DNA of 64,000 nucleotides from Leptolyngbyaceae cyanobacterium (GTDB lineage Bacteria > Cyanobacteriota > Cyanobacteriia > Phormidesmidales > Phormidesmidaceae). The notes below the pieces were generated by a model. It was not told where the DNA came from and ran no database searches. It saw nothing but the letters and a program-made list of their open reading frames with translations. A program made the position numbers and the translations under genes. The stretch's first letter is position 1. Every line of letters starts with the position of its first letter. Positions 12,283 through 36,099 of the stretch are shown here, piece by piece. The stretch is from NCBI GenBank assembly GCA_965263355.1, contig CBDHHL010000039.1:1-64000 (forward strand). The letters run 5' to 3'.

Positions 12283-12298
12283 TCTTAACAACTTTGCT

Positions 12299-12964: not shown

Positions 12965-14220
12965 CCACATACTATGGAGGTTTTTTACTAAACGCCCCAT
13001 GCCCGCTAGAGCTAAGTCTAAATGTGTGCAGTCACCATTGCCCATTCTGCTTTGCCAACCTAAACAAACCCGATCGCGTCGCTAACACTAGCCAGATATT
13101 CGGTCTACTCAAAAATGCTTTTTCCCCTGGCAAACTAACCCTAGAAAAACATTTACTGAGGTCTGGATACCCGATCCAATTTAGTAATCACATAGACCCG
13201 TTTGCAGGCAATAACTATGAGCTAAGCCTACGAACCTTAGAGACATTATCAGAATTAGATGTCCCCTGTTCCCTTCAAACTAAAGGGGGCCATGGCCTGC
13301 TCAAAAAGCCAAGCAAATATCACTGCTCAGCGCTAGACCTGATTAAGCCCACGGTCTTTTATGTGAGCTTAGAGACGCTAGACGATGACATCGGCAAGAA
13401 AGTATCTGCCCCTGGTGCGCCTAGGCCATCGTTACGGCTAGAGATGATTAAAACACTAATCGCCCACGGCCATCGTGTTTGTGTTGGCGTTAATCCAGTC
13501 GTGCCTCAATGGTTGCCTGATCCTGAATTGATGGTCACAACATTGCATCGCATCGGTGTTGAGGGCATGTGGATTCAGCCCTTACACTTAAGCCACAAGC
13601 AAATTGCAAAAATGTCTGTAGCTGACAAAAAGCGGTTGGGCGAAGAGATCCTTGATATGGCGCTGCCAAGGAATCATAAAAATTATCCTGCGATCGCTGA
13701 GACGTTATCAGCACTTAGAGCCAAAGCCGACGAGATTGGATTGGCTGTTTACGATAATCAGCAGCCGCAACGAACAGAGTACTTTAAGCCTTATATAGAA
13801 ACTTATCCCACTCGATATCCAATGATGCAGGAGTTCGTTAATTGGTGCCATGATTTCCATGAACCTGGTGATCTTATTTATTTTGAGGCTTGGTTAGACC
13901 TGATGCTGCCTAGCCTTCCTGAGGGTGTATGGCCGATTGGGCAACATATTGGTGCCGTGGCTGGCCCTGGATTTTGGTCTAAGACTCGCGACTTGGGAAT
14001 CACTAATCAAATGACGTATCAAGAATTGTTAGGCTTAATATGGGATTGGTTAGATTCTGTCCTGTGCCCTGCTAATGTTGGCTGTTTCCAGTGGGCTGGC
14101 GATTATGAACGGCAGTCTGACGGGACTGTAGGCTGGTCTCGTTGGACGGATAAAGAAGGGCATCCTATATTAGTGTTTAATCCTGAGGCAAACGGATTAT
14201 GGAGCCAGCAATATTTATAA
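12937..14220 (+). CDS. Radical SAM protein, SPL-like
   Basis: CSHHCPFCFA (CxxxCxxC), SNHIDPF, LQTKGG, PGAPRPSLRL, VNPVVP motifs. Confidence 0.85.
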   Translation: MAAVERQSLTTYYGGFLLNAPCPLELSLNVCSHHCPFCFANLNKPDRVANTSQIFGLLKNAFSPGKLTLEKHLLRSGYPIQFSNHIDPFAGNNYELSLRTLETLSELDVPCSLQTKGGHGLLKKPSKYHCSALDLIKPTVFYVSLETLDDDIGKKVSAPGAPRPSLRLEMIKTLIAHGHRVCVGVNPVVPQWLPDPELMVTTLHRIGVEGMWIQPLHLSHKQIAKMSVADKKRLGEEILDMALPRNHKNYPAIAETLSALRAKADEIGLAVYDNQQPQRTEYFKPYIETYPTRYPMMQEFVNWCHDFHEPGDLIYFEAWLDLMLPSLPEGVWPIGQHIGAVAGPGFWSKTRDLGITNQMTYQELLGLIWDWLDSVLCPANVGCFQWAGDYERQSDGTVGWSRWTDKEGHPILVFNPEANGLWSQQYL

Positions 14221-14780
14221 TTCAAATTGGCAATGGCGGTTCTGCCGTAAAGGCCGGAAATCATAGCAGTCAGAAAGTTACTGGTAGTGGCTCCGGTAGT
14301 GGTGGCATTTCTGACTCAACTTTCTTAGCTGCTGAATCCGAAAAAAAACTAGAACCAATTGCCGCCAATGCAGAAATAACCCTAACCTCTGCTCTCCCCA
14401 ACGATGCAGCCGCAACAGCCATGAGTGAGATAGTCTCAGCTCAAAACTTGCGTGTATTTGACAACGACGGCACCATGGCCCGCATGGATTGGAACTCTAG
14501 CTATGCCAAGCCAACGCGATCGCAAATGGTCGATACATCCGGCGGTGGATTTTTGGCTACTCTGACCTTCGCTAACAACCTTAAAAATGATATTGCCCGT
14601 GGTCGTGGAGAAAGTATCGGATCTCTATCTGTAGCAACTGCTAAGCAAGCTTATGAGGTCGATAAGTACAAGTTAAATAAAATGTGGTCAGGAGCTAGCA
14701 ATGCTGACCGCGCAGCAGCGCTCAAGGCTAGTTCCAGCACACCTAAGCAGTTAAGAGAGCTAGGTCTCAATATCCGATGA
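14199..14780 (+). CDS. Hypothetical protein with IFxxQxGNG leader and Gly/Ser linker
   Basis: Overlaps radical SAM stop; starts MEPAIFIIQIGNGGS. Confidence 0.65.
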   Translation: MEPAIFIIQIGNGGSAVKAGNHSSQKVTGSGSGSGGISDSTFLAAESEKKLEPIAANAEITLTSALPNDAAATAMSEIVSAQNLRVFDNDGTMARMDWNSSYAKPTRSQMVDTSGGGFLATLTFANNLKNDIARGRGESIGSLSVATAKQAYEVDKYKLNKMWSGASNADRAAALKASSSTPKQLRELGLNIR

Positions 14781-15211
14781 ATTTAATATTTGTAAGTCAA
14801 GCTGGCAATGGCGCAGTTTACAAAGAGAAAAAAGCTGCTCAAGCTGCAGCTAGAGATAAAGTTGCTGGTGGTAGTGCAACCTCATTAGATTCTGTCAATT
14901 GGGCATCCCCTGACATTGGGGGGAATGCCTCAGAATTAGAAACCGTAAATGTAAATAAAGTGTGGCAAGATTTTCAACGCAACGGCTTGACCGACACATC
15001 AAAGGCTCGCGTTGAAACACAAAAACGCCTGATCCGCGAATCGCAAGAATCAGGAAAAGCATTTAGATCTCCAGATTTATCGTTTGTCTCTCAGTCTGTA
15101 GCTAAGTCAACAGGACTGAACCCTGGCTTTGATGTAATCGACGGCAGACATCGCCTAACCGCTTTCCGTGAACTCGGCTTTACTAAGATAAAGGCGCGAG
15201 TAGAAAGATGA
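14777..15211 (+). CDS. IFxxQxGNG-leader protein with C-terminal ParB/Srx domain
   Basis: Starts MNLIFVSQAGNG; ends VIDGRHRLTAFRELG. Confidence 0.7.
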   Translation: MNLIFVSQAGNGAVYKEKKAAQAAARDKVAGGSATSLDSVNWASPDIGGNASELETVNVNKVWQDFQRNGLTDTSKARVETQKRLIRESQESGKAFRSPDLSFVSQSVAKSTGLNPGFDVIDGRHRLTAFRELGFTKIKARVER

Positions 15212-15595: not shown

Positions 15596-15649
15596 TGTTA
15601 CTAACAGTATTGCTTTTTTTTATTTCATCTGTCAAGTCTTTTCTTGACA
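15596..15649 (-). promoter_or_regulatory. Operator-promoter repeat copy 1 (TGTCAA-N8-TTGACA overlapping -35)
   Basis: 54-bp direct repeat of 15968-16020, differing only by one T in the T-tract. Confidence 0.75.
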
Positions 15650-15952
15650 AATTAAATCAAATTGCTGTTCAGTCAATTTCTTGTAGTCCTTCCGGACGGT
15701 GATGCAATAATCAATCACTTCAGCGTAGAACAACCAGGTCTCCTGACTCTCACCGTCAAAAGTGCCGTCTGGTTCTTCACCATCCAGGCTTACCCAGCAA
15801 TCGCGAGCATTGCCCTTGAACTCTGCCGACTCCTTACGGAGATTACCAAGAGTCCAGCACTGAGGGTCCATATACTCAACGACCCAATCAAGCGAAGCTT
15901 GGTAGTTGGTCAGTGCCGCCAGTTGTTCGTTAGTGATTGGTTGCTTTGCCAT
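15632..15952 (-). CDS. Hypothetical early protein
   Basis: Likely ATG 15952 (MAKQPIT) with AGGA RBS; bracketed by the 54-bp repeats. Confidence 0.65.
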   Translation of the reverse strand: MAKQPITNEQLAALTNYQASLDWVVEYMDPQCWTLGNLRKESAEFKGNARDCWVSLDGEEPDGTFDGESQETWLFYAEVIDYCITVRKDYKKLTEQQFDLICQEKT

Positions 15953-15967
15953 GGGTCTTTCCTGTTC

Positions 15968-16020
15968 TGTTACTAACAGTATTGCTTTTTTTATTTCATC
16001 TGTCAAGTCTTTTCTTGACA
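15968..16020 (-). promoter_or_regulatory. Operator-promoter repeat copy 2
   Basis: Near-identical to 15596-15649. Confidence 0.75.
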
Positions 16021-16131
16021 TTTTCTGAGGCAGCTTGATTATGGCTTAGAGTGCGATCTCACTCACTAGCCAAGGCATAACATCGCGAAAGCTACCGGCA
16101 AACCCAAGGCTAAACTCACGAACTGGCACAC

Positions 16132-16930
16132 TCTCCCCCTTCCCCCTTCACAAACAGAACGAGGGCTAAAAACGAACGTCCGTAATTGACTACCCCTAAT
16201 TCGAGTAATCAAGTTCAGTTTATTCACAAAAAAAATCAAGAAATACATTGTAAATGCACAAACTAGAATCGCTGTATCCCTTGATATATAAGGGATAGGC
16301 CGAAAAAGGGCTTTTTTGGGCTCTGAAAACTATTTTTTACTTTGAAAATCTGGCCTAAAAATCTTTATATGCACTGTGCCACTTTTTTTATAATCATCCC
16401 TTTTTACTCTCCATTTTTTTCTAAAACAGAAAGTTTGAAATTGAAAAATATAGAATATTAAGACATAGAAAACGCTGCAATGTATATATAGCAAGGGATA
16501 CAGCCGATAAAAAGCGCTTGAAATAACTATGAAATAACTGCTGAAAAGCAGGGGATTAGTAGGGGAAACCCAGTGATTTTTTGAATGACTTTTATTCACC
16601 ACTAACGAGTTTTCAGTACTTTCAGCGCTTTGCCTATTTTGTATCAGATTATACCGTTTGAAAAAAATAGTGTGCCAGCCCTATGTCCGTAAGTTGGATT
16701 CTGTAACACCCATGATACAAACGATATGTACATCAATGTACATGCCTGAGTCTAGGACTTATCAAAATAAGAATCCTTTATTGGCGGTACTTTTAGCGTT
16801 TTGCCCCCTTCATTCTGTAACAACCATGATACAGTTTGCTAAAATTTGACAGATAGGCGCTTATATGCATTGAAATAACTGGCACACACCGCCCTTGCTC
16901 GTCGTTCTAGAAAGGGGGAAGGGGGAATCG
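16132..16930. repeat. Non-coding origin-like element A; core 16418-16587 is an inverted copy of 57429-57598
   Basis: About 13 mismatches in 170 bp by manual alignment; AT-rich; internal direct repeats ATTCTGTAACAmCCATGATACA; inverted TCCCCCTTCCCCCTT ends. Confidence 0.8.
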
Positions 16931-16951
16931 GCCAAAAAAATGGCCACTAAA

Positions 16952-16981
16952 AAACCGCCAAGTTTTTAGACTTGACGGTTT
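16952..16981 (-). terminator. Intrinsic terminator (related copy at 17634-17663)
   Basis: AAACCGCCAAG-loop-CTTGACGGTTT hairpin. Confidence 0.6.
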
Positions 16982-17001
16982 GGGATTGATTCAGTTGGTT
17001 T

Positions 17002-17178
17002 TTAGGGAGACAGATAGGCCGAGAGCAAGTTATTTATGAGCTGACTAAGGCTTAATCCCAGCTCAGTAGCCTTATTGCTTGCCCTAGCCTTGATTCCAGG
17101 GTCTAACATGACGTTGGTCCGGACTCTGCGTTTGTCCCCTAGTGGCTTAGCGCCTGCGTTGCGTGGATTGCTTTTCAT
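17002..17178 (-). CDS. Ribbon-helix-helix (CopG/Arc-like) regulator, 58 aa
   Basis: Manual translation MKSNPRNAGAKPLGDKRRVRTNVMLDPGIKARASNKATELGLSLSQLINNLLSAYLSP; GGAGG RBS; below ORF-track cutoff. Confidence 0.7.
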   Translation of the reverse strand: MKSNPRNAGAKPLGDKRRVRTNVMLDPGIKARASNKATELGLSLSQLINNLLSAYLSP

Positions 17179-17181
17179 GCT

Positions 17182-17553
17182 TTACATACCTCCCTCAATT
17201 GCGTCCCAGTCATCAACCATCACCCATTGGCCTGTTGATGTCTGCATCATGCCAGCATGATCATTCTCAGTTGGCGCAAATTGACTGCAGAACGCCTCGA
17301 GTAACGCTAGCGACACTTTTACAGTTTTCTTTGTGCCACCGTACCAACCTTCGCTGGTTTCGATAACGTTACCACCAGCGTCTAATGCAAGCTGGCTGTG
17401 TCCTGTGTTGGAAAAGCGAGCAATAGCATGGCGAATATTCTCTGTGGTAAGAACCACTTGGCAATAATCGCCAGATTGGAATTCAATCCCATCCCTAGAG
17501 TATTCAACCCCTGTCGAGGTTTCTCTTATGTAAAAGCTTTTTTCAGTGTTCAT
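17182..17553 (-). CDS. Hypothetical protein co-transcribed with the RHH gene
   Basis: 123 aa; upstream palindrome ACACAC-N10-GTGTGT near 17588-17609. Confidence 0.6.
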   Translation of the reverse strand: MNTEKSFYIRETSTGVEYSRDGIEFQSGDYCQVVLTTENIRHAIARFSNTGHSQLALDAGGNVIETSEGWYGGTKKTVKVSLALLEAFCSQFAPTENDHAGMMQTSTGQWVMVDDWDAIEGGM

Positions 17554-17791
17554 GACCTTAGCCGCTCAACTACTTTTTTAATTTAGCACACACCTAATTA
17601 ATTGTGTGTGTATATATGTATGGATAAAAAGACAAACCGCCAAGCTTTTAGGCCCGACGGTTTTTGAGGTTTTTCATGATGAAAAGATTCCCTGGTTTGA
17701 CTTATACGGTCGACGGCGCTTACCTAGCTGGCTTTCGTGTTTTTTTGCCTTGCGATCGCGATACTAGCAGGGCATCTTTGGTTTATCCTCA

Positions 17792-19476
17792 TTACTCATA
17801 ACTCCATCCATGCTTTGGCGTTGAGCGATCGCGGCATTCCCATAGGGTAAACTCATGCCCTGCGTATCGCGTACCCAGTTGGTTGGCACTGAAATTAAGA
17901 TGCCAGCAACTAGGAATGCCGTGCTCGCTTACTGGATTGTTGAAAGTGCTATCGCCTGAAAATTTTACTCGTCTGTCAGAGTAGTTGGCTGGGTCGTCTA
18001 GGCTTGCCATTCGCAAGGTGATTATTTGCCCTTGGCGCAAGATACTAAGGTGTAGTTGTTTCATTGTTCATTTGTTCCATAACTATATGTGGTTGCCCAG
18101 CGGTCGCGATCGCTCTTTCAGGAATCTCAGGGTCGACCACAATGGGTATGCTCTCAAAGGATTGCAGCTCGATATCTTCGATAGTGCAATTAACCGAGCC
18201 AGCCACCTCCAATCTGAGGGCTGAATAAGTTCGATAGCCTAAGATTAGTTGCTTAGGATATTCATGCTGGGTAGATGCGTATGCTTGAATTGCCCTTGTG
18301 ATTTCGGGTGGGATCGCCATCAGTAGTTACAGCTTAAAAACTTTTCTTTCCCTGTAGTTGTCGTGTAGACCAGCTTAAAGAAACTGCCTGTGTTAACAAA
18401 CTCATCAATAACGCTACCAGGGATTTGCTCCACTTCTTTCCTTTGATCTTCAGTTAAATCAATGCCACCGATGGAGATGACTGAACCGCCATTAACGTAC
18501 AAAATGAGTGTTTGCTCGACAATAACCGCATCTATGATCATGACTCCTGTGCTTTTATCTTCCATGACTGAATCCATTGATGTAAATTTCTTCAATTAAC
18601 GGGAACGCCAGTAGACCGTCCCTAACAACAGCTTGCATGGCAACATTTAGCCATGCCTCTTGATCGATTGACTCATGCTTTTGCTCGTCCACCAGCGCTG
18701 TAAGCAGCCCAGTGAACTGATAAGCAAGAGCCTCAGGCATTTCAATCTGAAATTCTGCGGCCAGAGCCTTCACGTTCTCACCAGCCTCACTAGATGGGAA
18801 CTTGAAAGAATAAGTTATTTCATCCATGGTCCAAAAGCTCCTGAGTTTCCTTTTCTAAGCGAGCTACAAAATCTTCTGGGCTTAAACACGCTCCTCCTTC
18901 CCCGTATCGATTGCCCGAAATCATGTCCTCAAAGGAAGCATCCAGCATTGAAGATGTGCCTTTGAGATCGGCACGGTTGAGTCTATCCTGTAGACTCCAT
19001 ATGGCGTCTTTGCCGTACTCTTCAAGATAGAATTCTTTGAATTCTTCCAGGCTCATGAGTATAGTTGCAGGTGCGTCCGTAACTTCTGAATACTCAAAAT
19101 ATTTATCTTCTATTTTGCCAATATGTCGAGACATTTTCTCTCCTTAATGTTCTTCTTTCTTTTCTTGACTAGCTGCGATCTCCCATTTCAGTCATTTATT
19201 CCCGTCAGCATCTTTAACACCCAGCGACTGATCAATCCCATGCATATGAGTTTTTAGAAAATCAAGCAAAGCATCCATAGCAGTGGGACAGCAATCAGAC
19301 TCCTGTTCGAAACAGTGATACGTCCATGACCATCCAACCTCATGGCTAGGTTGTCGGATGTCTAAATCGGGAATAGCTTGAGAAATTCGTTTTACTAGCC
19401 ACTCGTTTTGATTAGCTAGTAATTTTTCTCTGTAAATCTCTTTTAACATTGTCAGCTCTTCTTCTTGAGTAGTCAC
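17792..19476 (-). CDS. Cluster of six small hypothetical early genes (17792-18064, 18045-18320, 18320-18595, 18555-18827, 18820-19134, 19192-19476)
   Basis: Co-oriented, mostly overlapping ORFs of 90-104 aa with RBS-like sites. Confidence 0.6.
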
Positions 19477-19526
19477 TTAAACCACCTCCAAATATTCTTT
19501 TTCTTGACTAGCTGCGTCCAGGGCAA

Positions 19527-19796
19527 CTAGTCAACGTCGCTAGAGCCCTTTTCTGTCAAGCTTTTTATTGGCAATATGATTACCCCTGGACTATTATTGG
19601 ACTCTTTTTCGAGCATTTTTACATACTCCAATATAGAGCCAAGTTGAGCGTTAGGGAGTTTCTTCTCCCTCTCGTCAATTCCTTGTCTGTTCTTTAGCCC
19701 CAGTGCTCTAGCGGCTTGCGCCTTAACAGGGACTTCTGCCTCCCTCCACTCAATCAAAAGGTCTGGCAGCGCTTCGATAAACTCGCTTAATTTCAT
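19527..19796 (-). CDS. Cro/CI-like HTH repressor candidate
   Basis: ATG 19796; LLIEWRE...KAQAARALGL...QGIDEREK...AQLGSILEY pattern; divergent from the operator-bearing rightward promoter. Confidence 0.55.
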   Translation of the reverse strand: MKLSEFIEALPDLLIEWREAEVPVKAQAARALGLKNRQGIDEREKKLPNAQLGSILEYVKMLEKESNNSPGVIILPIKSLTEKGSSDVD

Positions 19797-19905
19797 GTCA
19801 AGTCTAGTATTTACATCTGGACTATAGCAAAGCAAAATTAATTTTGCAAATAGTCAATAAATTACTTGACACCTGAAAACAAAAAAGGCATACTTGTTAG
19901 TAACA
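19796..19905. promoter_or_regulatory. Divergent promoter/operator switch
   Basis: Rightward TTGACA(19866)-17-CATACT with AGTCAA-N8-TTGACA; leftward TTGCAA-17-TATAGT; operator variant TGTCAA-N8-TTTACA at 19796-19815. Confidence 0.7.
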
Positions 19906-19927
19906 AAGCGAAACGGAGTTACTTAAG

Positions 19928-20203
19928 ATGGACATTAAGTTCTTAGGGCATGAGTCAAAAACAGGCAAAAATCAAGTTTTGATCAACGATTTCAGGTTTG
20001 AATTTAAGCTAACTCCCAAAGGGGCTGCATCCTTCAAGGATCTAGATGGAATGTTCCCTGAGAAGAAAGGAAAAGTTGTAGCCAGAACATACAGATCTTT
20101 TAGAACCTTGCTAGGCATTCAGCCTGGTTCCCCTTTGGCGAATAGCTTAGTTACGTGTACATCGTGCGCAAGAATTCACTACCCTTGGATGTTTAGCAAT
20201 TAA
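19928..20203 (+). CDS. Hypothetical early protein
   Basis: GGAG RBS; own promoter and terminator. Confidence 0.65.
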   Translation: MDIKFLGHESKTGKNQVLINDFRFEFKLTPKGAASFKDLDGMFPEKKGKVVARTYRSFRTLLGIQPGSPLANSLVTCTSCARIHYPWMFSN

Positions 20204-20216
20204 GCGACACCATCTA

Positions 20217-20301
20217 AACCCCGCTAACCACAACACCCCGGTTAGCGGGGTTCTTTTTTGTCAATAAATTACTTGACATTTGAAAATGGATCTCTTAGTA
20301 T
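20217..20301 (+). promoter_or_regulatory. Terminator + operator + promoter cassette
   Basis: 13-bp stem AACCCCGCTAACC/GGTTAGCGGGGTT + U-tract, then TGTCAA-N8-TTGACA-17-TAGTAT. Confidence 0.8.
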
Positions 20302-20352
20302 TAAGACATGTCGGGCAACCGATTTGTTTTTCCTTTCGGAGGTTTTGAGTTT

Positions 20353-20712
20353 ATGGCTGTTGTTACTCGTCGTTCCGCTGAAATTCTTGCTCAGGCTACA
20401 TTTGGCGACTTTTCCCGCTATTGCTTGGCTGTTGTACTAACTAGATTCGATAAAATCGAATTTCAAGTTAGTGATGCAGAACGTCCTGACGACGACGGAA
20501 TGCCTAGCGTTATTCGACAGACTGAAACTATCCAGTCCGCTTTAGAGGGGATGGAAGATGTCGAATGCTTTTCTCAGAGACCATGCACTGGGGATTTTAT
20601 TGTAACTCTGGGGAAAACTCCAGCAGTCTATCTTGAGGAAGGCCGTGCTCGATGCATTCGCACAGGCGAGGAATTCTTGGTTGGTAGCTTTCATGTCATC
20701 AAAGGGTTTTGA
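20353..20712 (+). CDS. Hypothetical early protein
   Basis: Likely ATG 20353 with GGAGG RBS. Confidence 0.65.
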   Translation: MAVVTRRSAEILAQATFGDFSRYCLAVVLTRFDKIEFQVSDAERPDDDGMPSVIRQTETIQSALEGMEDVECFSQRPCTGDFIVTLGKTPAVYLEEGRARCIRTGEEFLVGSFHVIKGF

Positions 20713-20729
20713 TGGCCTTACTCATTAGT

Positions 20730-20811
20730 AACCCCGCTAACCACACCCCGGTTAGCGGGGTTCTTTTTTGTCAATAAATTACTTGACACCTGAAAAGCTA
20801 TCGTTTAGCAT
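20730..20811 (+). promoter_or_regulatory. Terminator + operator + promoter cassette (repeat of 20217)
   Basis: Same stem and operator; TTGACA-17-TAGCAT. Confidence 0.8.
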
Positions 20812-20835
20812 TTGAAGTGTAATTGAGGTCGAGCA

Positions 20836-21330
20836 ATGGCAAAAGTATTTAAGGTCAAAACACAAATTCCGCCTAGGAAACTTGGTCTAGTGGGCGATAG
20901 ATCGTGGGAAGAATCCGAAAATCTTTTCTATGCGCAAGAGCTTATCCAAGCTAAAGACCAAAAAGAAGCCATGGCGATCGCGGCTAAGTATGGAGCAATA
21001 GTTTCAGTGGAGGAAACAACCATCAAGCCGAAGTCAAAAAGGCAGCAAGCCATAGAAAGCCTACTGTCTGTCAAGTCGGCACAAGAAAAAACATGGCACG
21101 AATTCGTATGCGAGTATGTATTCCTTATGACTGGGCTTAAGAAAAATAGAGATCTTGTAAGCGGCTACCAGCTGAAGAAAAATAAGAAAGGATATTCAAT
21201 TCGTTGGGACGGAAGAGACATCATGCTAAATGATATGGCTGCTGACGTTGCTTATTCTTTCTGTTTGCGCCATGGATTATCTTACTTTGTCAGGGAAGCC
21301 GAAGATTACAGGATGGATTTATTAGCCTGA
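20836..21330 (+). CDS. Hypothetical early protein
   Basis: GAGG RBS; 164 aa, basic. Confidence 0.65.
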   Translation: MAKVFKVKTQIPPRKLGLVGDRSWEESENLFYAQELIQAKDQKEAMAIAAKYGAIVSVEETTIKPKSKRQQAIESLLSVKSAQEKTWHEFVCEYVFLMTGLKKNRDLVSGYQLKKNKKGYSIRWDGRDIMLNDMAADVAYSFCLRHGLSYFVREAEDYRMDLLA

Positions 21331-21345
21331 TTTTGCCTGATTTTT

Positions 21346-21388
21346 TGTCAAGAAAATACTTGACACTTAAAAAGAGATTCGCTATATT
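21346..21388 (+). promoter_or_regulatory. Operator-promoter driving the structured RNA
   Basis: TGTCAA-GAAAATAC-TTGACA-17-TATATT. Confidence 0.75.
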
Positions 21389-21394
21389 AGAAAT

Positions 21395-21790
21395 GTGAGA
21401 GACGGGATGCAACCCCGCAGTCAAAGCCACTGGCGAGGGGAGATACGCATTTTAACTCTTGGGGTTAGTCAAGATAAACGACGGGTTTTTACCCTGATAT
21501 AGCGGAAGTAACCGCCTACTCATCGCGGTACCACACCAAACGACGGTGTCGGTCGTAAAGTTCGGAAGGAGCCGAAGGTGGGAGGACAAACAAAATGACT
21601 AACTAAAAGAACAGCAAGCCCGACTCATACCCGTTGAGCGCTTCGGTGCAATAGGCGACACATGTTAGGGCAAACTGGGAACCCATTAGCGGGCACACCG
21701 AGCTATATAATCGCGTGTCATCCTGGCGAGCTGAGATGCAATCAGTAAGGGCTTTAGCGGTGTTGAGCCTTATCAATGCCGCCTAGAATC
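21395..21790 (+). ncRNA. Unidentified ~400-nt highly structured RNA or leader
   Basis: No ORF in the track; nested helices (21457-71/21596-610; 21618-22/21690-94; 21757-66/21773-82) and repeated GATGCAA loops. Confidence 0.6.
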
Positions 21791-21804
21791 TTTGAGGAAA
21801 ACCA

Positions 21805-21870
21805 ATGAATAATCTTTATATCATTGGCTACCTTTTGCTTCTCTTCACAGCAAATGTAGCCTTAATGTGA
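21805..21870 (+). CDS. 21-aa hydrophobic peptide MNNLYIIGYLLLLFTANVALM
   Basis: GAGGA RBS; composition of a single TM helix. Confidence 0.45.
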   Translation: MNNLYIIGYLLLLFTANVALM

Positions 21871-21881
21871 GCCTTCAAATC

Positions 21882-21915
21882 GCCCCAGGCATGGCGTTAA
21901 ACTGCCTGTGATGTT
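21882..21915 (+). repeat. 34-nt repeat copy 1, predicted H-type pseudoknot
   Basis: GCCCCAGGCATGGCGTTAAACTGCCTGTGATGTT, identical at 22230-22263. Confidence 0.8.
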
Positions 21916-21935
21916 TTATTAACGGAGAAAAGACC

Positions 21936-22223
21936 ATGGGCCAGTATTTTAGACCTGTTCACGTGCCGACAAATACGGCAGTTACAAACTTTCCATTTGC
22001 GTGCAATGGAGGCCTCACTTGGATTCCAAAGGTATTTTATTTCACAGATGAAGAGTTACTTGAAGAAACCGAGATTGTGGCTAAAGCTTATGGATGGGAT
22101 GTCAATGACATTGTTTGGGTTGGCGATTATGGGCAAGTTGTGTCCTTGAAAAACGGTGTTCGTGATAATGGCGATGGAGAGAATCACGACAATCCATTAA
22201 AAACCTTGACTTGGGGAGATTAA
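21936..22223 (+). CDS. Hypothetical protein
   Basis: GGAG RBS; MGQYFRPV...IVWVGDY. Confidence 0.7.
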   Translation: MGQYFRPVHVPTNTAVTNFPFACNGGLTWIPKVFYFTDEELLEETEIVAKAYGWDVNDIVWVGDYGQVVSLKNGVRDNGDGENHDNPLKTLTWGD

Positions 22224-22229
22224 TTTGCT

Positions 22230-22263
22230 GCCCCAGGCATGGCGTTAAACTGCCTGTGATGTT
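22230..22263 (+). repeat. 34-nt repeat copy 2
   Basis: Identical to 21882-21915; precedes a GGAG RBS. Confidence 0.8.
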
Positions 22264-22279
22264 GATAACGGAGAATGAA

Positions 22280-22486
22280 ATGAATAGAAACGATGTGACC
22301 AGGGAGGAGTATCTGGCCCTCGCTGGTCAGGTTGCCAACGGATTGCATGCATGCACTGGGTTTCTCAATGAGCCTGAGGACATAGCCGAATCCGTTCTAG
22401 AACGGACTGATGCGTTGGTTCAAAAGCTCAATGAGCGGTTTGCTCAAGAAGATTTTGAACCAAGTAGTGGCTATTATCGGCTTTAG
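22280..22486 (+). CDS. Hypothetical protein
   Basis: Likely ATG 22280 (MNRNDVTREEY). Confidence 0.6.
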   Translation: MNRNDVTREEYLALAGQVANGLHACTGFLNEPEDIAESVLERTDALVQKLNERFAQEDFEPSSGYYRL

Positions 22487-22558
22487 GCTTTGATAGACTC
22501 CCCTGATTTCAGACGATTTCAACTGTAAAAATAACCGTCAAATAACCGTCAAATAAGA

Positions 22559-22996
22559 ATGAAAAAACTAATCACAGCGATCGCTTTCACCCTGTCCATG
22601 GCCACCACGGCCAACGCGTTACCTGTCTGCTACAGCATGACTGAAGACGGAGACATTACTGACCTGTCCCATATGTGTCCAGCATCTGAGCAGCCAGTAA
22701 CGATCGCGGCCAGACGATCACCTGAACTACCCGCAGTGGAAGTTGCCACAGAATCGCCTAAAGCCACCTTCCAAGTCCGTCGCATTAACAGAACCAATTG
22801 GACAGCTACTGGGACGGTTAATTTTTCAAGGGCTGCTGAACCAGGCGATCGCGTAGTTCCGTATTTACAGTATGAAGATGGGCGGGAAGCATCATTGCCC
22901 GCAGTAACATATGAGCGTGGGAACCGCAGAACGGAGATTACGTTTAATGTGGTTCCTGGCACTAGCACTAGTGAGGTAGACGGCGGTGTACGTTAA
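22559..22996 (+). CDS. Secreted protein (signal peptide; CY..T.DG...DLSHMC motif)
   Basis: MKKLITAIAFTLSMATTANA Sec signal with AxA site. Confidence 0.7.
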   Translation: MKKLITAIAFTLSMATTANALPVCYSMTEDGDITDLSHMCPASEQPVTIAARRSPELPAVEVATESPKATFQVRRINRTNWTATGTVNFSRAAEPGDRVVPYLQYEDGREASLPAVTYERGNRRTEITFNVVPGTSTSEVDGGVR

Positions 22997-23264
22997 ACAA
23001 AAGTTAATCACAGTAGTTGGATGCACTCCTGGTGAGGCCGATGATTTCATTCAAGAATTTGGTTTAAGCAAAACTGAGATTGCTTTAGATTTAATGCTTT
23101 GCGGAATGTCTATAGACGATGCTAAAGCAGCGGTAAACATAGATATTGACAATCACTTGTCTAACTCATTTATCAGGGCAATTATTTTGCAAAGTTACAA
23201 TCAAAAACAAGACCAAAAACTGGAATCTCTTAAAGATGCTTTGGCGAAACTAGAAGGTATTTAG
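22986..23264 (+). CDS. Hypothetical protein
   Basis: 92 aa; overlaps previous gene. Confidence 0.5.
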   Translation: MYVKQKLITVVGCTPGEADDFIQEFGLSKTEIALDLMLCGMSIDDAKAAVNIDIDNHLSNSFIRAIILQSYNQKQDQKLESLKDALAKLEGI

Positions 23265-23268
23265 TCGG

Positions 23269-23820
23269 ATGAAGACAGCATATTCTCAGTTAATGTTTAA
23301 GGAAATAAAGGAAATGAATAAGAATGCTTTAATCGCGATCGCTTGCACAGTCGGTGTCATTGGCTTAACTGTGGGTACCTTAGTCACACAAAAAGTCCAG
23401 GCAGACGCTAGACGAGAAAAAATCCATCAGGCTTGGTTAGAACGCCAAGCAAATCCTGAACAGTATCAAGCAGAGATAGCGGCTAAGGTTGAAGCTACTA
23501 AACAGGAACAGGACAAAAAAGGTTTTGACGCTGCTGAGATTCAATCCTTTAGGGAAACAGTTGCAGCTGTCGATCCGAATGGTCTTGTTATCAAGGATAT
23601 CCGGGTTGATACAGTGCGCCCAGTGGTTTCGATTACCGGCACTGCTGCATTGTTTGCCCAAAGCGACTTGCAGTTAAAAGAAATCGCTATGAATCTTCAG
23701 AGTATTTCTGATAAAACTTGCGGTTGCACATCGCTGGTAGTTTTCAAAACGCAAGCTGGTCAAACTGTGGCTAAGTCTGGCATGTTTGGAGGTGTTGATA
23801 TTGTCGCCAAGAATCGATAA
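23269..23820 (+). CDS. Membrane-anchored periplasmic protein (possible superinfection exclusion)
   Basis: N-terminal hydrophobic segment then soluble domain; start may be MNKNAL. Confidence 0.55.
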   Translation: MKTAYSQLMFKEIKEMNKNALIAIACTVGVIGLTVGTLVTQKVQADARREKIHQAWLERQANPEQYQAEIAAKVEATKQEQDKKGFDAAEIQSFRETVAAVDPNGLVIKDIRVDTVRPVVSITGTAALFAQSDLQLKEIAMNLQSISDKTCGCTSLVVFKTQAGQTVAKSGMFGGVDIVAKNR

Positions 23821-24224
23821 TGGCAATCACTAATTTCGGCTTGTACCCGACTTCTATAGTTTTCCAGCTACCCACTGGCATAACTGATGACTTTGAGGGT
23901 GGCTCCGCTGATGGCCTAACTGCTGTCACGGTGCCATGCCGGGTTAAAGTAGCGACTCAAAATAGAGCAAGCCAGTTCAACACTAGTGCGTTCGAAGGAC
24001 CCAATAATAATAGTGTGATGCTACTTGGTTGGTGTGGCACTGAAGCAGCACCAACTGAGTATTTATTCCCTAATAATCTTAGGGGATGGCCTGAACCACC
24101 GACTGGGACGATGGAATTAAACGGCATTAGCGGCAAAGTTGAAGTGCTTATTCAACCGTTCGCGATCGCTGATGCAGCCCCTGGCATTGGCGAACGGTTT
24201 ATTGCACGATGGACGGCTAATTGA
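23820..24224 (+). CDS. Putative head-tail joining protein
   Basis: Beta-rich, 134 aa; first gene of the tail-side structural run. Confidence 0.45.
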   Translation: MAITNFGLYPTSIVFQLPTGITDDFEGGSADGLTAVTVPCRVKVATQNRASQFNTSAFEGPNNNSVMLLGWCGTEAAPTEYLFPNNLRGWPEPPTGTMELNGISGKVEVLIQPFAIADAAPGIGERFIARWTAN

Positions 24225-24247
24225 GCATACAAATTTCTTGGCCTAAT

Positions 24248-24601
24248 TCAATCATTGAATCCCTGCTCCCAAACTTGTTCAGAGATTTTATACGGCTCGC
24301 CTTGATGCCTAGCCCATACGAGGACTAGGCCTTTTTGCATGGAAACTCGTTGCACTTCACTAGGCTGTAATTCCCGACTTAATCGCTCATTGGCACTGAC
24401 TAACTTGGCAGCTTTTCTAAACAACGCTAAACGACTGCTGCCTAATAAATGAAGATGCAAGATATTGACCATAAGATCCATGGTCCCGGTCTGAGTATTG
24501 ACCCCAAAGTAATCTTTTAACTCTGAAAACCGCTTCAAGGTTTTTCTAGACAAATGACCGGCTCTTATTTCGCCAGTTTTTTCAGGCAAGTTGCCAGCCA
24601 T
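24248..24601 (-). CDS. Small putative DNA-binding protein inserted antisense in the tail operon
   Basis: 117 aa; palindrome TTCCAAG-ATA-CTTGGAA (24610-24626) just upstream. Confidence 0.5.
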   Translation of the reverse strand: MAGNLPEKTGEIRAGHLSRKTLKRFSELKDYFGVNTQTGTMDLMVNILHLHLLGSSRLALFRKAAKLVSANERLSRELQPSEVQRVSMQKGLVLVWARHQGEPYKISEQVWEQGFND

Positions 24602-24665
24602 GAAAAAAATTCCAAGATACTTGGAAATTTTAACATATTGTCAAAAATGACTGTAGGCTGCAATT

Positions 24666-25058
24666 ATGGCAGTCCTAAATTTTGACAGAACAGCGTTTAA
24701 TCGTGGCCTTGATAGGGGGCTACGAGGTTTTGCTGTAGATATGGATAGGTTGCTAACTGAATCAATTGAGCAACCGTTGTATCCATGGCCAGGGTTCACT
24801 AAACGGAAGTCTGGTGAAGAAGTTTTTAGTCCTAGAAATATTGTGGACTTGGGAGAATTTAGGGACTCGCAGCAATATAGTTTCCCTTCCCAATTGACTA
24901 TTTTATTTGAATGGACTGCTCAACATTCAGTATTTGTATTTAACGGGTTCACGACTCGTAGCGGCTCAACGTATCCCGCTCGTAATCCAGTATTACAGAC
25001 AGTAGAACAATATGACTTGGCTGCTGTCCTGGCTCAGCAATTACGGGAGGTGTTCTGA
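24666..25058 (+). CDS. Tail completion protein (HK97 gp10-like)
   Basis: SPRNIVDLGEFRDS...VFNG...YPARNP pattern. Confidence 0.7.
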   Translation: MAVLNFDRTAFNRGLDRGLRGFAVDMDRLLTESIEQPLYPWPGFTKRKSGEEVFSPRNIVDLGEFRDSQQYSFPSQLTILFEWTAQHSVFVFNGFTTRSGSTYPARNPVLQTVEQYDLAAVLAQQLREVF

Positions 25059-25501
25059 TGCCTGTAATTAGCATTGCCCAGATTAGAGACCAAGTTCAGA
25101 CCCTAATGACTCCCTACCTGGGAACTCGTACGTATGTTACAGCTACGGGTACTCAGACATTGCCGTCGTTGGTGTTGGACTATGGCAAAACTCAAGATGT
25201 TGGTGGCATTCAATGGCAGAGACAGCCTAAGAGTCTAGAAGGCTTGGAGGTTGTTATTACGCCTCAGCAGCAAGCAACGCTTACACAGTTTTATTCTCAA
25301 CAGCTTGGCCTGGAATATACGACCACCATCACGCTGAAACAGTGGGACGAAGCGGGCACTGTAGCGGCTGCTGCTGCTGCGTTGATTAGTGGTATGGGTT
25401 ATCTGTTTCAAGCTGGAGTGTCGGTTAAGACGCCAAGGGATTCAAGGCTCGACACGATTGAGTCTGAAAGTTTTCGAATTGTTCATCAAATCAGGAGTTA
25501 A
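25058..25501 (+). CDS. Tail terminator-like protein
   Basis: Position between gp10-like and tail tube genes. Confidence 0.5.
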   Translation: MPVISIAQIRDQVQTLMTPYLGTRTYVTATGTQTLPSLVLDYGKTQDVGGIQWQRQPKSLEGLEVVITPQQQATLTQFYSQQLGLEYTTTITLKQWDEAGTVAAAAAALISGMGYLFQAGVSVKTPRDSRLDTIESESFRIVHQIRS

Positions 25502-25506
25502 TCACT

Positions 25507-26217
25507 ATGCCAGGTGCTGGTAACAATCCGCTATTAATGCCCGATTCGCGGGAAACGAAAATCTTTGCAGCCTTAGTAACAAATAATACGAGCGTGCCCA
25601 GTCGGATTGCGCCGATCACTTTAACACTGGGTGCTGCTTTTACGGCTACAACTACGGGAACCGCATCAACGATGACTGCGAGCGCTGCTCCTACAGTGCC
25701 GATTATCGCGGGAACAGTGTTGCGGTTTGTCGATGCAGCTGGATCTTATATGGCCATTGTCACAACTGACAGCAACGATGGCAGCAATATTGAGCTGACG
25801 GCTAATGAAGATATCCCCAACGGCGCAGTTGCCAATTGGCCCGGTGAGGTTGATTTGATTACGTCTCATAACCTGGGGGTCCAGACCACGCTGAATAATG
25901 TTTCGACATATCAGCACATTGGCTCTGGCGAATCTTCCCGTCAGGATACGACTAGAACTTTCACGATCGCGGCTAACTTATCTGAGTATTCCAGCGGCCA
26001 ACGGATTTTACGCTATGCCGTGAATGCTGAGAACGATGTTTACCTTGAAGTTCAAGACCCGAACCCTGATGCCGTGACGTTTAGTACTCCACCGTTATCG
26101 TTTGGCGTTGCTCGAATGTCGGATGGTTCTAAGGATGGCCAGAACGGCAACAAGTTGGCACTGTCTCTTAATGGCACGTTCTCCGGTGCTGTGACTGAAC
26201 TTGAGGCTGCTGCTTAG
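25507..26217 (+). CDS. Major tail tube protein
   Basis: 236 aa, beta-rich; precedes chaperones and tape measure. Confidence 0.65.
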   Translation: MPGAGNNPLLMPDSRETKIFAALVTNNTSVPSRIAPITLTLGAAFTATTTGTASTMTASAAPTVPIIAGTVLRFVDAAGSYMAIVTTDSNDGSNIELTANEDIPNGAVANWPGEVDLITSHNLGVQTTLNNVSTYQHIGSGESSRQDTTRTFTIAANLSEYSSGQRILRYAVNAENDVYLEVQDPNPDAVTFSTPPLSFGVARMSDGSKDGQNGNKLALSLNGTFSGAVTELEAAA

Positions 26218-26474
26218 TGAAGATTGAAGCCTTGCAAAACCAGCATATTTTTATGCTTGGCTGCACAGTTGAAGGGTCAAGGCTAAGGGCATTACTTAGC
26301 TTTACTAAGCCTAAAATGTGTGCTGGTTTTGCAGGGCAAGAGGCGTTACTGGTTGAACCGTATCGGCAGAACAATACTGAAATTGTTGTTGTGATGCCGA
26401 GTGACTTAGAAGCAATTTATACATACTTAGACTTGGAGGTTGTTCGTTGTGACTCAGACCTTATGGGAAATTAA
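26217..26474 (+). CDS. Hypothetical tail protein
   Basis: 85 aa; coupled to tail tube gene. Confidence 0.5.
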   Translation: MKIEALQNQHIFMLGCTVEGSRLRALLSFTKPKMCAGFAGQEALLVEPYRQNNTEIVVVMPSDLEAIYTYLDLEVVRCDSDLMGN

Positions 26475-26952
26475 ATCAGTCGATCGCGTGGTTCGGGTGC
26501 CTGGGATGGCCCCGGTTACTGTTCCGGTTTATCCGTCCTTATTAGTGCCAGAAGAAGAATATTTCCAGAGTCTTAGGGATAACGAAGAGATTAGCGATAA
26601 GCGATTGATGGACCTGTTAGTTGCGTTTTGCCTTAAACATCGTGGCGTACTTGGCGATGATGTCCCTACTGAAAAGATTATTGCAAATACTCCTAGACCA
26701 TTGGCTGAAGCTTTGTTTAGCTTATTTATCTATGGCTTACCAGGGAAGCGAGTAAATCCAACTGAGTATATTTACGATCCTGAAACTGAGTTGGGAAACG
26801 ACGAAACTCAGAGCCAATCGACTGGGGGAAACTCTGCTGGCAACTCCAGCGCTGGTATCCAGGCTGCGAATATTTCAGACCTACCCAGTTTAGAAACTGT
26901 CCGTCAAAACTCGCCTTGGATGCCGCCAGAGTCTGGCGCGATGACCGCATAG
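26440..26952 (+). CDS. Tail assembly chaperone G
   Basis: Before tape measure; in-frame G-GGA-AAC slippery sites at 26793 and 26826. Confidence 0.7.
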   Translation: MFVVTQTLWEIKSVDRVVRVPGMAPVTVPVYPSLLVPEEEYFQSLRDNEEISDKRLMDLLVAFCLKHRGVLGDDVPTEKIIANTPRPLAEALFSLFIYGLPGKRVNPTEYIYDPETELGNDETQSQSTGGNSAGNSSAGIQAANISDLPSLETVRQNSPWMPPESGAMTA

Positions 26953-27215
26953 CTGAGCTAGCCGAGGAAGCCACGGCGACTAGTGAGGTTGCGGCATTAA
27001 TCGCACGGGCGAATTTTAAGAACGCTGAAGACGCCAGCGCGACTGATTTTAATCGTTGGGGATTAACCCAACGCAGGAATGAGCTTGCTAAGACTATCCC
27101 CCCTGAAGCCGCAAAAATCTATGTGAAGTTGCTGAAGAAAAGCCGAGTGCCAGATTGGGTCAGGGCGATTATGTCTGAACGCGATATGACGTTATTAGCA
27201 GGAAAGGTTGAATAG
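26793..27215 (+). CDS. Tail assembly chaperone GT extension (-1 frameshift)
   Basis: -1 frame open from 26793 (GKRRNSEPIDWGKLCWQLQRWYPG...) into the 26916-27215 ORF. Confidence 0.75.
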   Translation, partial: GKRRNSEPIDWGKLCWQLQRWYPGCEYFRPTQFRNCPSKLALDAARVWRDDRIAELAEEATATSEVAALIARANFKNAEDASATDFNRWGLTQRRNELAKTIPPEAAKIYVKLLKKSRVPDWVRAIMSERDMTLLAGKVE

Positions 27216-30200
27216 TGGTTCAAGCTGGTTCGGTTGAATTCGCAGTTGAATTTTCGGAGTCGAGTATTACGGCTGCGATCGCTGACTTGCGGACACGATT
27301 CAACCGGGTTGATGACCTTGCTATTGATGTCAGGCTGAATGATGAGACTGTTATTCGTGGCATTAGCGACATTAGACAGCAGCTTAGTAATGCTGATAAT
27401 GTTCGGCTGGATGTCAACCTTGACGATTCAATTACGAGAGAGATAACCCAGCTTAGACAACAGCTAGAAGCTATCAACAGAACTCAGGCAAGTGTTGACT
27501 TTGGGCGCAGTGCTGCTCAAGCTGACGCGATCGCTCAGTCACTGACTCAGTTAAGAGCCCAATCAAATATTCCAGTAACTGTCAATACGAATGCTGCCCA
27601 GCGTAATGTTCAGGAGTTAAGGCGTGGGTTTGCAACGGTTCAACAGGCTGTTGATGGATTGAGTCGTGAGAGGATCAACCTAGAAGTTAATGCTCGAAAT
27701 ATTCAAAATCAGATTGCGGCGGTTGATGCCAGAATTCAACAACTGCGTGACAAAGAGATTCAGATTCGAGCAAATTCTAGAGCAGCTGAAGCAACAATTC
27801 GGAATTTAGACGCTCAAGTTACTGAACTTCAGCGCAATCGTTCTGATATCCAGCTAAAGATTGATGCTCGCACTGAAGAAATAAATACTATCGAGCAAAC
27901 GATAGAACGGCTTAGAAATACTCGAATAAATTTAGAGCTAAACCCATCCACCAGTAACCAAGCACTTAATTTGTTGGATCAGCGAATCCAGCAATTAAGC
28001 AACGAGCGAATTAAGCTAGAAACCGATAGCACGTTACAGAATCAAATTCTGCAGATAGAAGATAGGATCGGCAGAATTCAATCACGACGACTTCGGTTAG
28101 AGGCTGATACACGCCAAGCTGAACCACGCATTAGGCAGATTCAGACTCAGCTCGGTACGCTTGACGATAAGCGAGTTCGATTAAATGTCGATGCCGACAA
28201 CGCAACTGAACAGATCCGCACTCTTGATAGACGGTTAGAGGCATTAGGGGGCGGGAACGCTAGGCAGGCATTACGGCAAATTAACAGGGAATTAAGACAA
28301 TTAAGTTCTCCCACAATATCGCCCAATCTAGATCTTAGTGGCATCCGGAATAGTAGCGGAATTGTTCAAGGAATTTTCCAGGGGATTGGCCAAAGAGTTT
28401 TTGATACTCTAGCTAACGCTATTGGAGGGGGCATCAGAGCAGGGCTTTCAACTGTTCAAAATGCAGTTGGCTTTGAGCAGGCATTAGTTACGTTTAGCGC
28501 TCGTGCGGGTGGAGCTGAGGAAGCGATCGCGGCAGTTACTGAAGAGTCTAGACGATTAGGAATTGAAACCAGTAAAACGCCTGAAGAAGTGGCGCGCATC
28601 GCTACTCGAATGGTCGAATTAGGCGGTGAGGTGACTGAGGTTGGTGATAATGTTGCAGGCGTTGTAGCTGCACTAGAAGGAACTGGTTTTACTAATATTG
28701 ATGCGACCGCCAAAGCTATTCAGGCAGGAACAAATATTTTTAACGAGTCTGCCGATGCTTTGGCCGATAAAATCACGCTACTTGCCAATACAACAGCAGT
28801 TACATCGGCTGAAGGCATTTTGCAGGCATTTGGTAAAGCGGGCGGTTCGTTTGTCGATGCTGATGTTAGCGCATCGACATTACTGGCAACATTTGCTAAA
28901 TTCTCCGAGACAGCCACTCCTGAAGTGGCCGCGACTGCAACCAGGAATGCCCTGGATGGTTTAAGAGGTAGGACTGATGTAGCAAGAGAAGCATTAGACA
29001 GGCTAAACGTTTCATTCTTTGATAATCAAGGCCCGACCGCGTTTACGGACACATTAGTAGATCTTAGAGATGCACTTGAGCCGCTAAGTGAAGAAGATCG
29101 ATTTACAGCTTTACAAGATATTTTTGGCGGCAGAAGTGCTTCACAGATAGGATTGTTATTGCAAGGTTTAGACGATGTAATCGCAAAAACTGATGAACTT
29201 GAACAGGGTTTCGGCGCATCCGGTGAAGCTGCAGACAATCTAAATCAGGGTGTTGCTGCGGCGGTTAATCGACTGCAAGGAACCCTGACCACTGCCGGAA
29301 CCGATCTTGGTTTGGCACTGACACCAGGTATAGAGGCGGGCGTTAGAACATTAACCGCGTCAATTAATGCTGCCATTGAAGACGGTGATGCTTTTGGGGA
29401 CACAGCGGCCTCGGTTGAAGCATTATTGGCGGCTGTTGACGGGTCTGAAGTTGTCGACGTTTTATCAGCTAGCCTTCGTAGCTTATTTGATTCGGTTGAT
29501 GCGGGGGCAGCCAGCCTGATTGATTCGCTATCTAATATATTGAGTGATCCTGAAAATCTCGACAGATTTGGCCAATCAATTGAAAATCTTGGGACTGTCC
29601 TGGGTGGAACCTTAAGAATTGCGGGCGTTGCTGCTGAGGCGTTTACTGTACTATCAGCAGCATATTCTGACACGATAGGCGAAGGCCCAGCTGAGGCAAT
29701 TGGGCAATTTTCATTAATTCTTGAAGGGATTGTCCCGGTTGCAACTCAGGTTAGAGATTCGATATCCGGTTTAGTAAATCCGGTCACTGAATTTTTAGAT
29801 CGCTTTTCCTTGGTTGGTGATTTAATAAATCAGTTTGGCACCTTAGGCCCAGCTATTGGCGCGATAGGCCTAGCCTTTACCGGGGTCACTAATACAGTTC
29901 AGTCATTGCGGGAACAGTTAGGGTTTTTAACAGCTGAGGCAGTCCAGCCAGCTGTAATTACCGATGCTGGTGCTGAGGGTGTTCAAGCGTTAGCGAATGC
30001 CGGAAGTAGATTGTCTTCTGATGCTGGCCAAAATAGCAGAGAGGAACAGTTGGCAGCAGCACAAGCATTGGCTGGCCAGTTGGGAGATATTGAAGCCAAT
30101 GGCGTTGAATTATCTGAACGGAGAAAAGAACAGCTCAGGGAAGAATCGTTGCAGGCATTAGAGGATACTCAATCGGCTGCCCTGGCAAGATTAGCAGCTC

Positions 30201-35173: not shown

Positions 35174-35177
35174 TCTT

Positions 35178-36077: not shown

Positions 36078-36099
36078 AAATCGTATCGCTGGATGCTTT

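Follow-up and report, generated by a model that had tools for sequence, protein, structure and literature searches.

The stretch 21346..21870 of a contig from a Leptolyngbyaceae cyanobacterium probably encodes an uncatalogued early non-coding RNA of a cyanophage, whose function we can only infer. The RNA would occupy positions 21395..21790 of the window, by which we mean the whole 64,000-nt stretch of DNA that we analyzed. The non-coding reading is supported by the stable-RNA type of its promoter, its position in an array of promoter cassettes, its G+C content, and the way in which its close relatives vary. Evidence for RNA structure, which comes from predicted folds, is weak to moderate. Three readings had been offered from the sequence alone: a new phage ncRNA, an antitermination RNA, and the leader of a type I toxin. 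The first fits best, although the folding energy of the stretch is ordinary. As to function, we tentatively favor, at just short of an even chance, a stand-alone folded early RNA of ~400 nt that would be transcribed abundantly from an rRNA-type promoter and bind proteins in trans, as a decoy or scaffold.

A candidate non-coding RNA in a phage genome

The window comes from the genome of a tailed phage. It carries genes for a terminase, a P22-like coat protein, a primase, and a polymerase exonuclease, and an IS605-type element with TnpA and TnpB is inserted in the phage at 38039-39603. The host is likely a cyanobacterium, since the palindrome GCGATCGC, which we take to be the cyanobacterial HIP1 element, occurs 25 times in the window (0.6 copies expected) and the best relatives of a transposase in the window sit in cyanobacterial genomes. 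Close relatives of the phage exist as ENA/NCBI contigs, several of them 35-165 kb long, in which the tail protein is 68-98% identical; with neighboring proteins as bait, none were found in viral or genome collections. At 12257-15211, a ParB-like gene, a radical SAM gene, and a second ParB-like gene adjoin the terminase gene and may form a DNA-modification cluster.

Between 21331 and 21935 there is no ORF of at least 60 aa in any frame, in agreement with the sequence-only reading, which had described ~400 nt free of ORFs. This is the second-longest gap of its kind in the window; the longest, at 465-1217, spans 753 nt and is 45% G+C. Within the gap we place a candidate RNA of about 396 nt on the + strand (21395..21790). 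Its presumed start is a GTG that follows the -10 box by 7 nt, the arrangement of the rRNA leaders, and its 3′ end is putative. The RNA is 52% G+C, compared with 41% for other non-coding DNA, and the genome is also lower. Folding energies are -125 kcal/mol for the + strand and -114 kcal/mol for the - strand. A search with a 57-aa ORF on the reverse strand found no homolog. A frame of 35 codons opens at the presumed first base (GTG, 21395-21502); its length is within chance, and a leaderless peptide is possible.

The promoter resembles those of cyanobacterial stable RNAs

The best sigma-70 match in 19000-23500 is TTGACA(21360)-17-TATATT(21388) on the + strand (11/12 consensus), which places a promoter ahead of the stretch, as had been claimed. 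Lying over its -35 box is an inverted repeat, TGTCAA-N8-TTGACA (21346..21365). In the window, this repeat is present five times exactly, where about 0.01 copies would be expected, and twice in degenerate form, bearing out the suggestion that the promoter carries an operator-like repeat. The repeat is likely the operator of a phage repressor, which, we infer, binds it. Operator control of the promoter at 21360-21388 is plausible because a gene for a Cro/C1-type HTH protein (19527..19796, - strand) adjoins the sister promoters. This gene likely encodes the repressor for the operator: its ESM Atlas feature matches of 0.92 to HTH_3 clusters are a lead only, and it had no match in Pfam or PHROGs.

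The inverted repeat is common to cassettes on both sides of the HTH gene, in an array of promoter cassettes at 15596-21388. Two cassettes of this array have the same terminator hairpin in front, and relatives reshuffle genes among the cassettes. The candidate RNA takes the first-gene slot of one such repressor-type cassette. Each of the sister promoters (19866, 20273, and 20783) is followed by an ORF within about 60 nt; unlike these, the RNA promoter is followed by about 410 nt before the first RBS.

BLAST of 21340-21880 against 401 cyanobacterial genomes gave four short matches. Two were to the promoter, and both of these sit just upstream of 16S rRNA genes. The signature TTGACA-N13-TCGCTATATT, a pattern defined after 2 of its 17 genomes had been seen, occurs at 33 places in 17 of 301 cyanobacterial genomes, compared with 2 places for a reversed-pattern control. 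All 30 signature loci that we read are stable-RNA promoters (27 rRNA and 3 tRNA-Glu). At 19 loci, the 16S gene starts 171-179 nt downstream; at 8, a contig border lies within 38-86 nt and the sequence reads as the same rRNA leader; at the remaining 3, tRNA-Glu is downstream. The phage sequence shares with these host rRNA operons (L356-L382) the -35 box, a 17-nt spacer ending in TCGC, the TATATT box, a GTG 7 nt past the -10 box (at 21395 in the phage), and a hairpin. It differs in having an inverted repeat over the -35 box, which the host promoters lack, and in containing neither a boxA after the hairpin nor rRNA sequence. The three sister promoters do not have the signature, and its exact 10-mer occurs once in the window. 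Sequence comparison therefore makes it well supported that the phage promoter is of the cyanobacterial stable-RNA (rRNA/tRNA) type.

Since the signature is found at stable-RNA promoters, the cassette appears to be built for heavy RNA output, and this argument is independent of the folding evidence. In one contig from a relative, the same promoter is followed by other sequence with an RBS and an ATG; thus, this RNA is not what the promoter drives in every case. Promoter type supports RNA output and is not proof of a non-coding product.

The promoter also bears on a reading in which the nascent RNA alters RNA polymerase so that it reads through terminators, as HK022 put or boxB-boxA RNAs do. The candidate RNA lies directly behind a likely repressor-controlled early promoter of the rRNA type, and the genes from 21936 to 36077 are nearly all on the same strand. 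put RNAs are likewise located directly downstream of early phage promoters, as described in part of PMC9378689. However, the put RNAs in that account are about 70 nt with two stems, in contrast to ~400 nt here, and an rRNA-leader profile (boxA about 50 nt past the -10 box) found no match in the RNA. Terminator-like sites in 21300-37000 numbered 17, compared with 14.9 in shuffled sequence; those downstream on the + strand are weak, with none before 23720, and we identified no strong one. With no boxA after the 5′ hairpin and no clear target terminator, antitermination has become a weaker proposal than it was in the sequence-only reading, and we regard it as highly unlikely.

Searches for known families and homologs

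Rfam includes ROOL, GOLLD, OLE, raiA, LOOT, HEARO, 6S, SRP, RNase P, tmRNA, and introns. At the gathering threshold, Rfam 15 had no match in the window, and at E values up to 10 it had none within 21395-21790; a sub-stretch of the RNA searched against Rfam gave one microRNA match (E 6.7). The RNA had not been recognized as tRNA, tmRNA, RNase P, or an intron, and this Infernal-type check agrees. ARAGORN detected no tRNA or tmRNA in the 64-kb window, which seems to belong to a contig of about 83 kb. Apparent resemblances to RNase P, HEARO, SRP, group I introns, hammerhead, 6S, and the ZTP riboswitch were set aside, as none had Rfam support.

We found no distant homolog of the RNA, and the fold described below is a prediction. 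blastn of phage and plasmid records (E 1) gave no homolog, and searches of phage records with neighboring proteins as bait reached no true one. Motif scans of viral contigs (3, at least 120, and 11 loci) and of metagenome contigs (4 loci) also yielded no true homolog; loci from these scans were checked by blastn/nhmmer (127 loci) and with the single-sequence covariance models R2 (100 of at least 120) and R1 (18). BLAST of 5, 401, 17, and 401 cyanobacterial genomes, which are overlapping samples, was negative, as were R1 on 90 + 10 genomes, R2 on 151 genomes, and both models on 80 of at least 120 pseudoknot loci and 40 kb of G139. These null results come from searches without a positive control outside the window.

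Several candidates were rejected. The locus L018 (E 0.13) apparently falls inside a gene of the opposite strand, with no alignment over the remainder; L349 is coding sequence. At 19531-19550, a 17/20 match is no more than chance would give, and in relatives the corresponding end of the protein varies. The 164-aa protein encoded upstream had no usable ESM Atlas match. Literature searches by motif and by topic found no published description of the RNA. PMC10690425, a catalogue of 10,000 candidate viral RNAs, may list this one.

These searches weigh against the RNA being a HEARO/omega guide scaffold or a catalytic RNA in rearranged form, such as an RNase P-like RNA or a permuted group I or II intron, a reading to which we give very little credence. 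There is a TnpB element elsewhere in the window, and short motifs in the RNA seem to resemble those of catalytic or guide RNAs. However, Rfam offered only the microRNA match, the order of elements is wrong for a group I core, and a natural variant alters three bases (21622-25) of what would be the P4 strand. The neighboring ORFs that we scanned include no IscB, HNH, or reverse transcriptase, and the RNA has no similarity to the end of TnpB.

Predicted fold of the RNA

The predicted fold consists, in order, of a 5′ hairpin, an outer helix, domain A, an irregular hairpin capped by UUCG, a GAUGCAA hairpin, and a 10-bp final stem. The 5′ hairpin (21403..21417, + strand) has a 7-nt loop containing the palindrome UGCA and a pair probability of about 0.97. 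The 5′ strand of the outer helix (21430..21448), which consists of CUGGCGAG and the 7-bp GAUACGC, is predicted to pair with 21713-21730. The pair probability is 0.99-1.0 for the 7-bp part and 0.43-0.98 for the motif-on-motif part, which includes two G.G mismatches. Enclosed by this helix is domain A (21457..21610), a multibranch structure with A-rich junctions and four hairpins. Its closing stem has 9 bp, or up to 15 positions when two G.A mismatches, which are GG opposite AA, are included. The sequence-only reading had drawn this stem as 21457-71/21596-610; the inner 9 bp are retained in our predictions (p 0.73-0.90), while the outer 4 bp reach only about 0.3.

The second enclosed element, domain B (21612..21677), is predicted to be an irregular hairpin with a UUCG cap. 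A multiloop closed by GCCCG/CGGGC, which had been proposed for this region, is a minor fold (p 0.15) and is 1.6 kcal/mol worse. Instead, the GCCC is predicted to pair with GGGC at 21668-71 (p 0.83), giving the long irregular hairpin. The 3′ hairpin (21731..21745) has a pair probability of about 0.94. Of the two GATGCAA loops that had been proposed, its GAUGCAA loop is recovered, and the 5′ loop is predicted to be AUGCAAC. Also recovered is the 10-bp final stem (21757..21782; pair probability 0.82-1.0), which has no U-tract and was not called as a terminator by our scan. It is possibly a stem that would protect the 3′ end.

Folding statistics do not set the RNA apart. Energy better than that of shuffled sequence was one expectation for a structured RNA; for the 396-nt whole stretch, z was only -1.0 to -1.3. 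In one set z was -0.98, with 17 of 100 shuffles folding equally well, and in a second set it was -1.29. When energy, ensemble diversity, or confident pairs were compared, 13-15% of 60 shuffles matched the RNA. More negative values came from sub-regions picked afterward: -2.4 for domain A (21450-21615), -2.0 for the first 66 nt, and -4.1 for the final stem. For 21610-21720, which contains domain B, z was +0.4. Since z for the whole stretch is about -1, folding energy alone does not support the RNA claim.

Repeated motifs are similarly unremarkable. Two copies of CTGGCGAG are present, as had been noted, and in the predicted fold they form a helix together that includes two G.G mismatches; individually, they do not exceed chance. 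The sequence AAACGACGG also occurs twice in the RNA, a third repeat that is equal in rank to those pointed out before. Overall, there is no excess of repeated 7-, 8-, or 9-mers (p 0.13-0.22).

The z value of about -1 and the chance level of the repeats are what would be seen if the stretch were a non-functional or decaying spacer, such as what is left of a gene or mobile insert, whose transcription is due only to the strong promoter in front and which folds by chance because it is rich in G+C. In that case, the finding would be ordinary. The stretch has no homologs beyond one phage population, and one variant lacks 276 nt. Against this reading, which we consider unlikely, stand the stable-RNA-type promoter with its matching start and a G+C content above that of the genome and of other non-coding DNA, and there was no residual similarity to protein in the one ORF tested. 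The variants in close relatives, described next, also bear on it.

Natural variants in close relatives

Close relatives were found in three DNA sequencing runs (2 samples, 1 study); among the runs listed, none was of RNA. The analysis covers 40 of the 155 substitution sites, 12 of the 20 indels, 18 of the 86 loose ends, and 24 of the 401 pieces. In the upstream ORF, 24 of 442 and 28 of 508 positions differ, a rate at which about 12 substitutions would be expected in 21395-21620. Among the matches listed, pieces covering 21358-21542 and 21465-21620 have none, and these are the best pieces, picked from those listed. Fewer changes than in the adjacent gene would not be expected of a spacer. However, in 21341-21494, which is partly promoter, a second allele carries 9 substitutions and 5 gaps, and one 164-nt coding piece also has no differences. 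Thus, mosaic exchange can mimic conservation, which weakens the argument. Cassettes are exchanged among these relatives.

Within domain A, the pieces listed have no substitutions and one 3-nt deletion in a loop. The listed changes in the RNA are this deletion at 21540, a T>C substitution at 21708, and three substitutions in 21622-25. All three changes fall at positions predicted to be unpaired (21622-25 only marginally so), which also speaks against a spacer; the chance of this is about 0.09, given that 44% of positions are unpaired.

In one contig, 21407-21682 (276 nt) is replaced by 24 letters that join 21406 to 21683. Judged by eye, the replacement could form a 5-bp hairpin with a UUCG loop and a 7-bp pairing with the retained 5′ end. 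A short form of the RNA without domains A and B therefore exists, and it is predicted to rebuild the 5′ hairpin. The existence of this variant means that the two domains may be dispensable. A spacer would not be expected to rebuild a hairpin.

The 21-aa peptide gene

An RBS (GAGGA) and a gene for a 21-aa hydrophobic peptide (21794..21870, + strand) abut the RNA, as reported earlier; the ORF runs from the ATG at 21805 to 21870. The mean hydropathy of the peptide is 1.52, second among 26 short RBS-led ORFs, and it had no match in Pfam or PHROGs. Variants keep the frame and the position of the stop codon: several contigs have N2D, one loose end has a synonymous and a Y-to-F change, and where the downstream sequence differs, the stop changes from TGA to TAG in the same place. 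Judged by these changes, the peptide is probably a real small membrane protein.

We considered whether the RNA serves in cis as a long 5′ leader, silencing the peptide until processing or refolding occurs, as in a type I toxin system. Like the toxin of such a system, the peptide is short and hydrophobic. The arrangement of operator, structured leader, and hydrophobic peptide matches that of tisB, which is under LexA control and has an inhibitory 5′ UTR according to the relevant part of PMC8309996. There is no terminator between RNA and peptide gene, and predicted pairing covers the start codon as well as part of the RBS. PMC12390103 reports a candidate type I system from a cyanobacterium.

Other observations count against such a leader. 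The AUG lies in a predicted 7-bp stem (p 0.92-0.98; local z -2.0) that it forms with the peptide's own coding sequence, so that the occluding stem is within the ORF itself. Long-range pairing of the leader with the end of the ORF was rejected as a candidate, since 20% of random 23-mers did equally well. In two contigs, the peptide gene follows unrelated sequence. We found no minus-strand promoter that faces the locus within 21300-23100 and could produce an antisense RNA or antitoxin, and perfect complementarity to other parts of the window extends over at most 13 nt (E 0.3). The peptide lacks charged residues; in most membrane type I toxins, the C terminus is basic, and exceptions named in the same part of PMC8309996 are IbsC, ShoB, and DinQ. 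Because the predicted start stem is self-made, the upstream sequence can be unrelated, no antitoxin was found in the window, and the fold-back is ordinary, the RNA and the peptide gene look like neighboring exchangeable cassettes rather than one device. The leader proposal is accordingly weakened, and we judge its probability to be low, on a par with that of a spacer. Compared with tisB/IstR-1, the locus is alike in its operator-bearing promoter, predicted structured leader, short hydrophobic peptide, and predicted hidden start, and it differs in the lack of an antitoxin in the window, the separable peptide cassette, and the uncharged peptide.

Part of the peptide gene (21818-21879) matches DNA of L351, the translation of which we take to be psbC (CP43), in 1 of 401 genomes. 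The match is in frame, is 76% identical over 62 nt (E 2e-4 per genome), and shares IIGY; the histidine is missing. It is probably due to chance, with a photosystem-helix mimic as the alternative.

A model for RNA function and comparison with known RNAs

In the model that we favor, a stand-alone RNA that acts in trans, host RNA polymerase would start at 21395 in the infected or induced cell, with the HTH repressor off. The transcript would fold so that the outer helix encloses domains A and B, would continue into the peptide gene because there is no terminator, and would then be shortened as far as the 10-bp final stem. For contact with a partner, either a protein or another copy of itself, the RNA would offer its A-rich junctions, the symmetric G.G helix, and the two UGCA loops. 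The peptide gene would be a separate passenger.

We know of no function for the large phage orphan RNAs ROOL and GOLLD, the structures of which have been solved. In excerpts of PMC5737381 and PMC12286853, these are described as large multibranched RNAs often found in prophages, and RNA-only homo-multimers are described as using kissing loops, together with A-minor contacts; in OLE the kissing loops are 4-nt palindromes. The candidate RNA shares with ROOL and GOLLD a phage context and, in the predicted fold, has the palindrome UGCA in both small loops, as OLE has its own; this likeness is a lead only. It differs in size (about 396 nt, compared with an average of 581 nt for ROOL and more for GOLLD, according to the same excerpts), in having no match to their Rfam models, and in genomic context: those RNAs are described there as lying near tRNA genes, and this 64-kb window has no tRNA gene. 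Thus, although it would work like ROOL and GOLLD, it differs from them in model match and context and is not a member of either family.

The staphylococcal phages K and vB_SauM-515A1 also produce highly expressed long non-coding RNAs for which part of PMC10383478 gives no function. According to that part, those RNAs have tRNA genes close by and are similar in sequence to GOLLD/ROOL; in this window, the present RNA has neither trait. They are also known to be expressed, whereas the cyanophage RNA is known here through its DNA.

A more specific version of the model is that a temperate cyanophage took over an rRNA-type promoter from its host, brought it under the control of the phage repressor, and uses it upon induction to fill the cell with the compact ~400-nt RNA. 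UGCA kissing loops and the self-complementary CUGGCGAG helix would then hold together a multimer that soaks up a host RNA-binding protein of defense or regulation. We regard this as a long shot; if true, it would define a small new class of phage RNAs that form multimers, in which the 276-nt insert is optional. For the stand-alone RNA in general, the candidate is smaller than ROOL and GOLLD and has a defined on-switch, namely an rRNA-type promoter with a likely phage operator. This on-switch and the natural short variant without two domains make expression, folding, and function directly testable as soon as a host or lysogen is available. The promoter signature also provides a homology-free route to further non-coding RNA genes in cyanophage genomes.

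An intercistronic element with a predicted pseudoknot

Downstream of the peptide gene, on the + strand, is an intercistronic hairpin (21881..21908) that is predicted to form an H-type pseudoknot and that has a copy at 22229-22256, as part of a 34-nt exact repeat. It forms the 3′ border of the peptide cassette and is a junction at which genes are swapped in relatives. The element is widespread in phage contigs and occurs in one cyanobacterial genome, usually between small genes and with the loop UGGCGUUAAAC; further copies are at L225 1501-1519 and in many of L227-L346. It is not in Rfam. Among at least 94 distinct contexts of the 15-nt core, 55 have YGCC 3-7 nt upstream (about 4 expected). In these 55, 126 of 165 outer-stem cells are paired, compared with at most 100 in 2000 shuffles, a test that ignores kinship. 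Judged by these sequences, the outer stem covaries. The element as modeled fits an H-type pseudoknot, the second helix of which is fixed on one side by the search pattern.

Further downstream, a 68-aa ORF contains a 22-bp inverted repeat at 22415-22463, where local folding gives z -3.8; in relatives, a fused form of 142 aa diverges just past the repeat. Coding sequence at 22307-22329 is complementary to positions 21429-21449 of the RNA (-28 kcal/mol), the second-best such pairing in 21790-22600, and this may be chance.
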